A program made the translations under genes and the position numbers. From Gammaproteobacteria bacterium (GTDB lineage Bacteria > Pseudomonadota > Gammaproteobacteria > DRLM01): DNA of 64,000 nucleotides. Of the stretch, positions 7,850-11,315 are shown piece after piece (position 1 is the stretch's first letter; every line of letters starts with the position of its first letter). The notes beneath the pieces are model-generated. The model was not told the DNA's origin and searched no databases. It saw only the letters and a list, made by a program, of their open reading frames with translations. The stretch lies in assembly GCA_037381915.1 (NCBI GenBank), contig JARRQJ010000005.1, positions 21,097 to 85,096 on the forward strand. The letters run 5' to 3'.

Positions 7850-9712
7850 ATGATGGAACACGCCATGGTCACCTTGGCCGTGATCGTCGTCTTTGGCATT
7901 GCTTGCCAATGGCTGGCGTGGTGGCTCAAATTGCCTGCGATCCTGTTTTTGCTGCTGGCGGGGCTTGTAGTTGGACCGTTTACAGGCTATTTCCGGCCCG
8001 ACCAACTGTTCGGTGATCTGTTGTTTCCCATGGTGTCGCTGGGCGTCGCGGTGATCCTGTTTGAAGGCAGCCTCACCTTACACCTCGGAGAGATCAAGGG
8101 GCTGGCCCGCGTGGTGCGCAACCTGGTAACCGTCGGCGCGGTGCTGAATGCAGTGATCATCGCCGCCGCCACCCGCTGGTTCCTGGATTTTTCCTGGGAA
8201 ATGGCCTTTTTGTTCGGTGCCCTGGTATCGGTGACCGGTCCCACGGTGATCGTCCCCATGTTGCGCACCGTGCGTCCCAACAGCAAACTGGCCAACATCC
8301 TGCGTTGGGAAGGCATCATCATCGATCCCCTGGGCGCCTTGATGGCGGTGTTGGTTTTCGAATTCATCGTTTCCGGACGAGACCATCAGACCTTGTTGGT
8401 ATTCGGCAAGATGTTGCTGATCGGAGGCGGGTCCGGGTCGGCCGCAGCCTACGGTCTTGCGACCCTGCTGCGGCGTCACCTCATCCCCGAGTATTTGCAC
8501 AACGTCTCGACCTTGGCGCTGGTGGTGGGGGTGTTTACCCTCGCCAATGGTCTGCAGAACGAGTCCGGTCTGTTGGCGGTTACCGTGATGGGCATGATCC
8601 TGGCAAACATGAAGAATGTGCCCATCGAGGAGATCCTGGATTTCAAGGAGAGTCTCAGTGTGCTGCTGATCTCTTTGTTGTTCATCGTGCTGGCGGCGCG
8701 GGTGGATTTCCAATTGTTCGCCGCAGTGGGATGGGGCGCGCTGCTGGTGTTTCTGGTGATCTTGTTCGTTGCGCGCCCGGCGATGGTACTGGTCTCCACC
8801 CTGGGCTCCAAACTCAATTGGCGGGAAAAGACCCTGCTCAGCTGGGTGGCACCGCGCGGCATCGTCGCCGCGGCGGTCTCCGCCCTGTTTGCCCTGCGGT
8901 TGCAGAAGCTGGGGTTTGCCCATGCCGATTTGCTGGTGCCCTTGACCTTCATGGTGATCATCGGCACCGTAGTCTTGCAGAGCGCCACGGCTCGACCCTT
9001 GGCAAATCGCTTGAAGGTGTCGGAGCCCGAGCCGCGCGGTGTCCTGATCGTCGGCGCCAATCCGGTGTCGCGCGCCATCGCCAAGTTTTTAACCACAAAG
9101 GGCTTTCGCGTCGTCATCGCCGATACCTATTGGGATGATGTGCGCACCGCGCGCATGGAGGGTTTGGCTACCTATTACGGTAATGTGGTATCCGAACACG
9201 CCGACCGCCATCTCGATTTGGTGGGCGTCGGGCGCCTGTTCGCGATGTCGCGCCGCCCCGCGCTCAACGCCCTGGCCTGTATGCGCTATAGGAGCGAATT
9301 CGGTGCCAATAATGTGTATACCCTGCAAACCGCCGAAGAAGAAGGGGCGCCGGAAAAGCAGGCCATCGCCACCCATATCGCCGGTCCGCGTCTCTTCGGC
9401 GAGAACGTCACCCATAGCAAGTTGGCAAGCATGATCGGTCAGGGCGCGGAGATCCGCGGCACGCAACTCTCCGAATCTTTCGATTACGCCAGCTATCGGG
9501 AAAAGTACGGAAAGGGACTCGTCCCCCTGTTTGCCCTCGACACCCACGGTGAATTGCGGGTCTTTTATGTGGGTGGCGAACTGGAGCCCGGGCCGGGCTG
9601 GACCGTGATCAGTCTGTTGCCGCCGGAGAATGAAAAACAAGCATCAGGATTGCATGAGGGGTCAAACGCGACAGCTGCGCAGAGCAAGGCCGGTGATAGT
9701 GCGCCGGCTTAG
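7850..9712 (+). CDS. CPA1-family Na+(K+)/H+ antiporter with C-terminal RCK/TrkA-like regulatory domain
   Basis: About 400-aa polytopic Na_H exchanger core followed by a cytoplasmic region with a Rossmann-like segment (VLIVGANPVSRAIAKFLTTKGFRVVIADT). Confidence 0.8.
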   Translation: MMEHAMVTLAVIVVFGIACQWLAWWLKLPAILFLLLAGLVVGPFTGYFRPDQLFGDLLFPMVSLGVAVILFEGSLTLHLGEIKGLARVVRNLVTVGAVLNAVIIAAATRWFLDFSWEMAFLFGALVSVTGPTVIVPMLRTVRPNSKLANILRWEGIIIDPLGALMAVLVFEFIVSGRDHQTLLVFGKMLLIGGGSGSAAAYGLATLLRRHLIPEYLHNVSTLALVVGVFTLANGLQNESGLLAVTVMGMILANMKNVPIEEILDFKESLSVLLISLLFIVLAARVDFQLFAAVGWGALLVFLVILFVARPAMVLVSTLGSKLNWREKTLLSWVAPRGIVAAAVSALFALRLQKLGFAHADLLVPLTFMVIIGTVVLQSATARPLANRLKVSEPEPRGVLIVGANPVSRAIAKFLTTKGFRVVIADTYWDDVRTARMEGLATYYGNVVSEHADRHLDLVGVGRLFAMSRRPALNALACMRYRSEFGANNVYTLQTAEEEGAPEKQAIATHIAGPRLFGENVTHSKLASMIGQGAEIRGTQLSESFDYASYREKYGKGLVPLFALDTHGELRVFYVGGELEPGPGWTVISLLPPENEKQASGLHEGSNATAAQSKAGDSAPA

Positions 9713-10728
9713 AGGGTGGCGCGCTCGCCGCTCGCGTCAGGCGCCGATGCCGCCTTGGCATGGCTGAATTCGAAGGGGTCGGCCAGGATGTCCTTGAACG
9801 CGGCGCCGGCGAGGAACACTTTCTTCTTCGTGGTCTTCACCATGTAGACGTTGCCACACAGGTAGATGCGCCAGCCTTTGAGTCGCGGGTAGGCCGCCAG
9901 TGCGACGGCATTGGCGCGGCCCGCGGTGAGCCCGTCGGAAGGGGTTTCACCGGAAATACAGCTTGTGTAGGAGACATTGGGGTAGCGCACGGCCGTGGCG
10001 CGCAACTCGTTCACCAGATATAGGCCGTGGCCGCCGCGACTGCCGTGGAATAGATGAATGGGGCCTTGATGGGCATGATGCAGGGCGTCGCGCAGCACAC
10101 CCCATAAGGGGGCGAGGCCGGTGCCGGTGGCGATCATAAGCAGCGGTTGTTGAGGTTCCCCGGGCGTATAGACGCAGTCGCCGAAAGGCCCCTGGATTTG
10201 CACCTTGTCGCCCACCGCCATCCCGTCGTGGATCCAGCTGCTCATGCTGCCGTCGGCGACCCGCTGTACGTGCAGTTCCAGCGACTCGTCCACGCCCGGA
10301 ACACTCGCCAGGGAATAACTGCGCATCACGTCCCCATGTTTCACATTGATGAATTGTCCCGCGCGATAGGAGAGCTTATCCGCGCATCGCAGACGCACGC
10401 GCATGACGCGCTCGGCGAGGGGTTCCTTGGCCACGACTTGCGCTGCATGCAACGGCATATCGGCATCACTCGGCAATGCCACCTCCATGTCCGAGCTAGG
10501 TTTGCATTGACAGGCGAGAAAGTGGTTGCGCTCGCGCAGCGACGGCTTCAAACCCTTTTGTGCCTCGACAGGCGGCGCCTTGTCGACGGCGCGCATCAGG
10601 CAGGTTTGGCAAATACCGCTGCGGCAGGAAGACGGAATCGGGAGGCCGTGCCGCGTCAAACCTTCGAGTACCGATTCCTGTTCCCCCAGTGGATAACGGT
10701 GGTTATCAAAGGTAATGACAGGCGACAC
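9709..10728 (-). CDS. 2Fe-2S ferredoxin / FAD / NAD(P)H oxidoreductase (MmoC/AscD-like ferredoxin-NADP reductase family)
   Basis: N-terminal plant-type 2Fe-2S motif (CRSGICQTCLMRAV...C), RSYSLAS FAD-binding motif and GTGLAPL NAD-binding motif. GTG start preceded by AAGGAG. Sits 21 bp downstream of the globin gene on the same strand. Confidence 0.8.
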   Translation of the reverse strand: MSPVITFDNHRYPLGEQESVLEGLTRHGLPIPSSCRSGICQTCLMRAVDKAPPVEAQKGLKPSLRERNHFLACQCKPSSDMEVALPSDADMPLHAAQVVAKEPLAERVMRVRLRCADKLSYRAGQFINVKHGDVMRSYSLASVPGVDESLELHVQRVADGSMSSWIHDGMAVGDKVQIQGPFGDCVYTPGEPQQPLLMIATGTGLAPLWGVLRDALHHAHQGPIHLFHGSRGGHGLYLVNELRATAVRYPNVSYTSCISGETPSDGLTAGRANAVALAAYPRLKGWRIYLCGNVYMVKTTKKKVFLAGAAFKDILADPFEFSHAKAASAPDASGERATL

Positions 10729-10749
10729 GGCTCCCGCTCCTTTTCGCGT

Positions 10750-11118
10750 TTAGCGGCCCAATACGTCGTTGCGGGTGCTTTCGGCGATGGCGGCTGCCTC
10801 GGCGATCAGCTCCTCGGGGACGTTGAGCTCTTGCAGGGTGGCGGCCAGATCTTCCATCACCGCATCGAAGTGGCTGTCATTCAGGCCCCGCTTCACCAGA
10901 TGGGCATGGCCCTCGCGCATGGACTTGTCGGTGTAATTGTTGGGGCCGCCGAAAGCCACGGTCAGGAAGGCCTTTTGTTTCGCCGCCTGCCTGTCCATAT
11001 CCACATCCTCGAAAAACTCGCTGATGCGGTCGTCGGCAAGGACCTTGCGATAAAAGATGTCCACGGCGGCATTGACGGCGGCTTCACCGCCGATACGATC
11101 ATAAAGACTCTGGGTCAT
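10750..11118 (-). CDS. Truncated haemoglobin, group I (trHbN/GlbN-like)
   Basis: About 123 aa from the ATG at 11118 (AAGGAG SD 8 nt upstream). Sequence MTQSLYDRIGGEAAVNAAVDIFYRKVLADDRISEFF...HAHL is a classic 2/2 Hb signature (Gly-Gly motif, B10 Tyr). The ORF track gives a longer 151-aa frame; the internal start is preferred from the SD and homology. Confidence 0.8.
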   Translation of the reverse strand: MTQSLYDRIGGEAAVNAAVDIFYRKVLADDRISEFFEDVDMDRQAAKQKAFLTVAFGGPNNYTDKSMREGHAHLVKRGLNDSHFDAVMEDLAATLQELNVPEELIAEAAAIAESTRNDVLGR

Positions 11119-11162
11119 GATGAGATCTCCTTTTGAGACTGAGGCGTTAACGGGCACAAAAG

Positions 11163-11179
11163 ATGTATCAAAGATACAT
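11163..11179. promoter_or_regulatory. Perfect palindrome ATGTATC-AAA-GATACAT in the globin promoter (candidate NO-responsive NsrR-like operator)
   Basis: Seen directly, flanked by A/T runs (AAAAGATGTATCAAAGATACATTTTAG). Lies about 45-60 bp upstream of the trHb start in the divergent intergenic region shared with the MFS gene. Confidence 0.4.
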
Positions 11180-11315
11180 TTTAGGGGGGATAAGCAAAAA
11201 GTCAATAAATATCTTATGGTTATTATGACCGATTTCGTCGGGTATTTAAGGGCAAAGCCTCAGCGGCGGGTCTTGTTACCATAGCCGGCTGGTAAGGACA
11301 TCCGCCGTTGCCATT

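Follow-up and report, generated by a model that had tools for sequence, protein, structure and literature searches.

We report here that a 64,000-nucleotide stretch of DNA from an uncultured marsh gammaproteobacterium (contig JARRQJ010000005.1; the whole stretch is hereafter called the window) carries two adjacent minus-strand genes, glbN, encoding a group I (N-type) truncated haemoglobin (trHb), and a gene encoding an iron-sulfur flavoprotein reductase. We consider it likely that the two genes form a bicistronic operon, repressed by NsrR, for a two-component nitric oxide (NO) dioxygenase, in which the small haemoglobin probably destroys NO and the iron-sulfur flavoprotein probably recharges the haemoglobin. 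An earlier reading of the window made from its letters alone (the sequence-only reading) had proposed a split, regulated system resembling an NO dioxygenase. To this proposal the present analysis adds a conserved pairing of the two genes and an operator of the NsrR type, and catalysis and electron transfer between the proteins stay at the level of prediction. The same reading had called the system poorly described, a description that must be withdrawn because the system was predicted in 2005 for Legionella and the prediction was cited in a 2012 review.

Group I truncated haemoglobins are efficient NO dioxygenases and, to our knowledge, few of the proteins that supply them with electrons in the cell have been identified. 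The reductase described here is the obvious candidate for such a native donor, because it is genetically coupled to the globin, is predicted to share with it a repressor of the NO-sensor type and belongs to a clade of its own. Further, the module is present in culturable methanotrophs, in iron and sulfur oxidisers and in Legionella, and a direct biochemical test is therefore feasible. The window itself serves mainly as confirmation, as a further case of the module in an uncultured marsh bacterium apparently without the flavohaemoglobin Hmp and without Hcp.

Open reading frame listing and translation gave an operon of two genes, both on the minus strand: glbN (10750-11118; 122 amino acids), followed by the gene of its partner reductase (9709-10728; 339 amino acids, GTG start). 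The globin stop codon (TAA, 10750-10752) and the reductase start (10728) are separated by 21 nucleotides (nt). The gap and the shared strand had both been given in the sequence-only reading, and we add the correction that this strand is the minus strand. As that reading had also noted, each gene has its own ribosome-binding site AAGGAG; direct reading of the sequence places one 8 nt before the ATG of glbN (11127-11132, minus strand) and the other 8 nt before the GTG of the reductase gene (10737-10742, minus strand). By sequence, both proteins are intact and hold every cofactor-binding residue of their families.

The phylogenomic survey that the sequence-only reading had named as a check was carried out in both directions, from the reductase and from the globin. 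Among 40 related genomes, which here and below are non-independent samples whose counts overstate the number of independent observations, a globin gene lay directly upstream and on the same strand for 12/12 reductase orthologues (47-100% identity) and beside 0/12 paralogues at 31-35% identity. When the best 80 loci were taken from contigs representing one genome per species, a full globin gene was directly upstream of the reductase gene in 74 of ~77 testable loci, at a distance of 17-217 nt and, once, of 1380 nt; the other 6 of the 80 comprised one partial globin at a contig edge, two loci too short to tell and three that were truly globin-less. From the globin side, a homologue was found in 39/201 genomes (200 drawn evenly across the class plus the window's own genome; the unpublished genome G050 is counted here, but its weak matches were put to no further use), and the reductase gene lay directly downstream in 23 of the 29 best foreign globin loci of this class-wide sample. 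In a phylum-wide sample, the reductase was present in 10 of 15 hand-picked loci, the globins without it being L151-L154 (≤56% identity) and L147 (71%). The carriers include Methylococcus, Methylobacter, Methylomonas, Methylocaldum, Sulfuriferula and Sideroxydans and, as groups, Methylococcales, Chromatiales, Burkholderiales, Dongiaceae, Zetaproteobacteria, a metagenome-assembled genome (MAG) of Chthonomonadales and a Planctomycete MAG labelled Blastopirellula.

On one side of the window pair lies a convergent gene for a TrkA_N-containing cation/proton antiporter, and on the other a divergent gene for a major facilitator superfamily (MFS) transporter, as assigned with Pfam and NCBIfam. In tblastn searches with both of these window proteins, the MFS flank was kept within the genus only and the antiporter also in a few loci of the same family; because the flanks are kept only in close kin, the conserved unit is the gene pair itself. 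The sequence-only reading had offered as a refuting case a reductase consistently paired with a monooxygenase; this was not seen in the surveys, which covered the MFS and antiporter flanks and did not look for neighbouring oxygenases.

The phylogeny of the reductases gave a matching picture. In a maximum-likelihood tree of 119 reductases, all 100 linked sequences fell into one clade together with 7 others (3 at contig ends, 1 with a frameshifted globin and 3 true exceptions), and a support of 100 in the SH-like approximate likelihood ratio test split this globin-linked clade from 12 unlinked paralogues. The latter include the paralogue from the window's own genome, a BenC-like protein that is not globin-linked and whose gene adjoins hemY. 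On balance, we lean towards the view that the globin-linked reductases are a dedicated, monophyletic trHb-reductase family that feeds electrons to haem through the 2Fe-2S domain, as the similarly built GcoB does for its P450, and not directly from flavin adenine dinucleotide (FAD), which is the route in Hmp. If true, this would settle for Proteobacteria in general the long-standing problem of the reductant of the group I truncated haemoglobins.

The arrangement of the pair varies at some of the surveyed loci. At L140-L144 (families f229/f251, phylum sample), nsrR is divergent from two tandem but separate globin genes, ~140 nt apart, whose products share 62-77% identity with the window globin; a single reductase gene comes after them. 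L145 has three globin genes and no reductase within 2 kb. In a genome of the same genus (G002, L016:1116-1473), the globin is present as two overlapping out-of-frame pieces (residues 4-73 and 59-122), beside an intact reductase and a nearby intact nsrR-like gene; the globin there is either a frameshift pseudogene or the product of an assembly error. The distance of 1380 nt belongs to a Sideroxydans MAG (L103:2259-4001), in which an insertion separates the two genes. Four related gammaproteobacterial MAGs (L035 and L038-L040) have a gap of 167-217 nt and an NsrR-like box ~200 nt upstream of the globin gene.

We next consider the transcriptional control of the pair. The sequence-only reading had pointed to a palindromic operator in the promoter, and this was found: the palindrome ATGTATCAAAGATACAT occupies 11163-11179, where shuffled sequences lead one to expect 0.04 matches in the window, and forms the core of a 19-bp box (11162-11180) that consensus matching and a position weight matrix (PWM) predict to be an operator of the NsrR type. 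The published NsrR consensus is gATGyAT-N5-ATrCATc, with sites before hmp, nnrS, hcp and nirK in many bacteria (Rodionov et al. 2005, PMC1274295). On the strand that codes for the pair, the window operator has the sequence aATGTAT-CTTTG-ATACATC, which agrees with this consensus at 13/14 specified positions, and its strict core, ATGyAT-N5-ATrCAT, occurs once in the entire 3.46-Mb assembly, namely at this site. A consensus scan further revealed a putative promoter, TTGACT-16-TAAAAT, with 10/12 consensus matches and a 16-nt spacer; the -35 hexamer TTGACT lies at 11200-11205 (minus strand) and the -10 hexamer TAAAAT at 11178-11183 (minus strand), where it shares positions with the left arm of the operator. 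When 10 family genomes were aligned, only the -35, the -10 and the box proved conserved, and the remaining upstream region varies: TTGAC is invariant, and the -10 block, (T/A)A(T/A)AAT, runs straight into ATG(T/C)AT. An operator of the NsrR type that overlaps the -10 box is thus predicted here with the backing of phylogenetic footprinting.

On a genome-wide scale, a scan with the PWM, which was built from 47 sites upstream of globin loci including the window's own, ranked this operator first with 37 bits, and no second convincing NsrR-type site was found in the assembly. The runner-up, at C12:12489 (24 bits), was considered as an NsrR target and rejected, as it falls in AT-rich sequence and no gene related to NO lies close to it. 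Across loci, NsrR-like boxes (≤2 core mismatches, within 300 nt upstream of the globin gene) were found at 49/85, compared with 2.1 on average and never more than 8 in dinucleotide shuffles. Of the 4 Rrf2 genes of the genome, the highest NsrR score belongs to one on contig C3, whose product has three Cys in the expected region. Orthologues of this NsrR-like protein (52-64% identity) are encoded divergently upstream of the globin gene in 40/80 loci, as well as in others from the class and phylum samples, and the window shows that the operator persists where nsrR is unlinked. As a separate observation on contig C3, an open frame for a hydrophobic protein of 140 amino acids without a family match (L003:1926-2348, minus strand) precedes the NsrR-like gene by 26 nt on the same strand, and because of this short distance the two may be cotranscribed.

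The globin was assigned to the group I (N-type) truncated haemoglobins from its fold relatives and key residues, in agreement with the sequence-only reading, which had described it as trHbN-like with Tyr at B10. It matches Pfam Bac_globin with an expectation value (E) of 4e-19, and in a PDB search its best solved relatives were all group I proteins (1s69, 3aq5, 2ksc, 4xdi, 1dly and 1idr), led by Synechocystis cyanoglobin (1s69; E 2e-38) and next by Tetrahymena trHbN, Synechococcus GlbN, Chlamydomonas THB1 and Mycobacterium HbN; the group II proteins HbO and YjbI matched at E 1e-5 or worse. Alignment with Synechocystis GlbN places Tyr23 at B10, where it is matched to the FY-motif Tyr of that protein, Gln44 at E7, Gln48 at E11 and His71 at F8, and it aligns the Gly-Gly motifs Gly10-Gly11 and Gly57-Gly58. 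The window globin shares its fold family, these four residues and the Gly-Gly motifs with Synechocystis/Synechococcus GlbN, THB1, Tetrahymena trHbN and HbN. Unlike cyanobacterial GlbN, it has no counterpart of the covalently haem-linking His117 in the alignment with the Synechocystis protein, and its E10 residue is Lys47 where Synechocystis GlbN has His; E10 is Lys in THB1 too. Unlike Mycobacterium HbN, it has no pre-A extension, and the alignment begins at HbN residue 14. In an alignment of 30 reductase-adjoining globins, with a mean column identity of 82%, Tyr23, Gln44, Lys47, Gln48, His71 and both Gly-Gly motifs are invariant.

Other forms of this globin were also encountered. Very close relatives (75-88% identity; P0129-P0242) include single-chain tandem fusions of two (~270 amino acids) or three (~400 amino acids) globins, and eukaryotic multi-globins reach 1923 amino acids. 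Neither of the two di-globin loci examined (L111:1066-1866 and L112:1498-2313) has an adjoining reductase gene, and a Pirin gene follows one of them. No globin-reductase fusion was present among the best 120 longer proteins, all of them tandem multi-globins, which crowd that list, and none was found as a long open frame in 401 genomes of the phylum. Reductase-less globin genes lie beside a gene for a molybdopterin oxidoreductase with an Fe4S4 domain at L135, an HPP membrane protein at L138 and a NirB-like nitrite reductase at L139, which suggests a link of the globin to NO that arises in nitrate or nitrite assimilation.

The reductase has, in order, the Pfam domains Fer2 (15-77; E 5e-11), FAD_binding_6 (97-187) and NAD_binding_1 (198-301), as expected from the sequence-only reading, which had recognised a plant-type ferredoxin domain at the N terminus of an FNR-superfamily reductase. 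The 2Fe-2S ligands Cys35, Cys40, Cys43 and Cys73, the FAD motif Arg136-x-Tyr138-Ser139 (RxYS) and the core of the motif for NAD(P)H (the reduced nicotinamide adenine dinucleotides), Thr201-Gly202-x-Gly204-Leu205, are invariant in two independent orthologue alignments, in which Gly200, Ala206 and Pro207 are conserved to 90% or more. Among solved structures, GcoB, a three-domain reductase that serves a P450 (5ogx; E 1.5e-40), matches best, followed by T4moF and BenC. The protein scores under the cut-off of every named NCBIfam equivalog (PRK05713, the best, 191 bits vs 338; BenC 136 vs 430; MmoC 128 vs 500; AntC also under), and it matches the Hmp model only at positions 158-385, with 82 bits against a cut-off of 432. 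By these matches it is a ferredoxin-FNR reductase of the three-domain BenC/MmoC/GcoB type that stands outside the named equivalogs. It shares domain order and cofactor motifs with GcoB, T4moF, BenC and MmoC; unlike them, it is partnered by a globin and not by an oxygenase.

Taken with the predicted operator, these assignments suggest the following scheme. When NO is absent, the Rrf2 NsrR-like repressor, encoded on the other contig, would occupy the operator over the -10 box and so keep the operon silent; NO, once present, would damage the Fe-S cluster of the repressor and thereby lift the repression. Two electrons from NAD(P)H would be loaded onto the FAD of the reductase, and its 2Fe-2S domain would deliver them one at a time to ferric haem, although FAD could also be the direct donor. 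The ferrous-oxy globin would turn NO into nitrate and would be re-reduced by the reductase. In support of the scheme, Mycobacterium HbN, Tetrahymena trHbN, Chlamydomonas THB1 and Synechococcus GlbN dioxygenate NO or guard against reactive nitrogen species, and GcoB reduces its haem partner, a P450, directly. We know of no dedicated reductase encoded next door to the model group I trHbs.

The closest known arrangement is that of Legionella pneumophila, in which glbN-lpg2536 was predicted to be the sole NsrR target and was proposed to oxidise NO like Hmp (Rodionov et al. 2005, PMC1274295); its site is GATGTATTTcAAATACATC, and nsrR is divergent (Rodionov et al. 2005, Table S4, PMC1274295). As in that nsrR<>glbN-lpg2536 locus, the window has a gene for a cyanoglobin-type trHb and then a ferredoxin reductase gene in one operon, the likeness of the window reductase to lpg2536 being taken solely from the description in that paper. 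The half-sites of the window operator are those of the Legionella glbN site (ATGTAT-N5-ATACATC), in a single upstream box. In both cases, no second strong NsrR-type site is present in the genome, and hmp and hcp are absent (on the window side, not found in the assembly). The window differs in that its nsrR-like gene lies on another contig and not divergently next to glbN, and in that its host is an uncultured marsh gammaproteobacterium and not an intracellular pathogen. The window operon is, therefore, a further instance of a widespread design already predicted for Legionella, and it is peculiar only in that nsrR is unlinked and that Hmp and Hcp are apparently absent.

The pair was also compared with Hmp. 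Here, as in Hmp, the haem globin is predicted to be reduced at the expense of NAD(P)H by FAD and NAD domains of the FNR type, and NsrR control is predicted as for hmp in many bacteria (PMC1274295). Unlike Hmp, the system consists of two polypeptides, its globin is a 2/2 group I globin where that of Hmp is 3/3, and it has an extra 2Fe-2S domain that is absent from Hmp. Ferredoxin reductases have been argued to be the donors of truncated haemoglobins, with the Legionella operon cited in support, and in vitro work on trHbs has used foreign reductases, with superoxide as a by-product that confounds NO assays (Gardner 2012, PMC3820574). A 2014 comparison of Legionella mentions the trHbN gene but not its reductase. 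A 2025 report of a 'novel haemoglobin' from Acinetobacter was considered and set aside, since it describes a different system, a 3/3 globin whose FAD domain is degenerate.

To place the module in its host, we examined the assembly, which is 3.46 Mb in size and 94% complete. No full-length flavohaemoglobin was found in it (Hmp model, best 82 bits vs 432), nor was Hcp, and neither NirS nor NirK was present above cut-off; there is one NnrS (C14:17215-18339). Because the assembly holds no full-length flavohaemoglobin and no Hcp, the module could be the main NO dioxygenase of this genome, as proposed for Legionella. Three further globin matches were noted: a second Bac_globin protein (C22:63709-64065; 138 bits), a globin domain inside an open frame of 997 amino acids that is possibly a globin-coupled sensor (C17:30694-31080) and a weak match of 135 amino acids (C55:33641-33955). 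The PWM scan found no strong NsrR-type box at any of these three globins or at the C14 NnrS gene.

Several points weigh against an NsrR-repressed, two-component NO dioxygenase. We found no biochemical, genetic or expression work on the globin-reductase pair in the literature, and none for the window locus. Three orthologous reductases (L043, L065 and L100) are globin-less, and in the class and phylum samples some close globins have no reductase; neither partner is strictly obligatory. In the window's own genome and family, the nsrR-like gene is not adjacent to the operon. Finally, the C3 protein scores 140 bits as NsrR (cut-off 182) and 135 bits as the iron sensor RirA, again below cut-off, which leaves its effector unfixed.

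Three other explanations were weighed. The same couple might have an anaerobic role in low-oxygen marsh sediment, as a reductase of NO, nitrite or hydroxylamine and not as an O2-dependent dioxygenase, which we regard as unlikely. The stretch does occur in marsh and salt-marsh metagenomes (DNA runs, with no RNA run among them), and the proximity of close reductase-less globins to genes of nitrate/nitrite assimilation (molybdopterin oxidoreductase, NirB-like, HPP) ties the family to N-oxide chemistry generally. Several NO-related activities are also known for haemoglobins, and the Acinetobacter report credits its haemoglobin with both dioxygenase and reductase activity. However, the distal pocket, with Tyr B10, Gln E7 and Gln E11, is that of O2-binding group I globins known as NO dioxygenases; obligately aerobic methanotrophs carry the same module; and the sequence has no feature specific to anaerobic chemistry.

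An oxygen or redox role, in which the globin would store, deliver or scavenge O2, the reductase would keep it ferrous and the Rrf2 protein would sense iron or redox state, seems to us quite improbable. It would accommodate the near-equal scores of the regulator as NsrR and RirA, both under cut-off, and the tandem di- and tri-globin fusions of very close relatives, a form that might suit ligand storage. However, the operator follows the NsrR consensus found before hmp, nnrS, hcp and nirK, the reductase-less relatives of the globin lie among nitrite and nitrate genes and not beside oxidases, and the role of NO dioxygenase is left open for the module, since the genome has no full-length flavohaemoglobin. 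That the adjacency means nothing, with the reductase serving another acceptor such as an oxygenase and general cellular reductases serving the globin, is very unlikely because of the pairing surveys: the reductase does belong to the BenC/MmoC/T4moF/GcoB superfamily of oxygenase reductases and three of its orthologues have no neighbouring globin, but the order and spacing of the pair are kept in loci from several classes and at least three phyla, the globin-linked reductases group by themselves in the tree, with the generic paralogue of the window's genome outside, and beyond close kin the MFS and antiporter neighbours of the pair change (tblastn, those two flanks only, with neighbouring oxygenases not looked for).

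Finally, we note the immediate surroundings of the operon. The divergent MFS transporter, a possible nitrate/nitrite exporter, was considered as a member of the regulon and rejected, since its adjacency is conserved within the genus only. On the other side, the antiporter gene (7850-9712, plus strand) and the reductase gene (9709-10728, minus strand) converge so closely that their stop-codon ends overlap by 4 nt (9709-9712), and there is therefore no intergenic space for a terminator; the sole terminator-like hairpin of the minus strand, at 9511-9528, lies within the antiporter gene.

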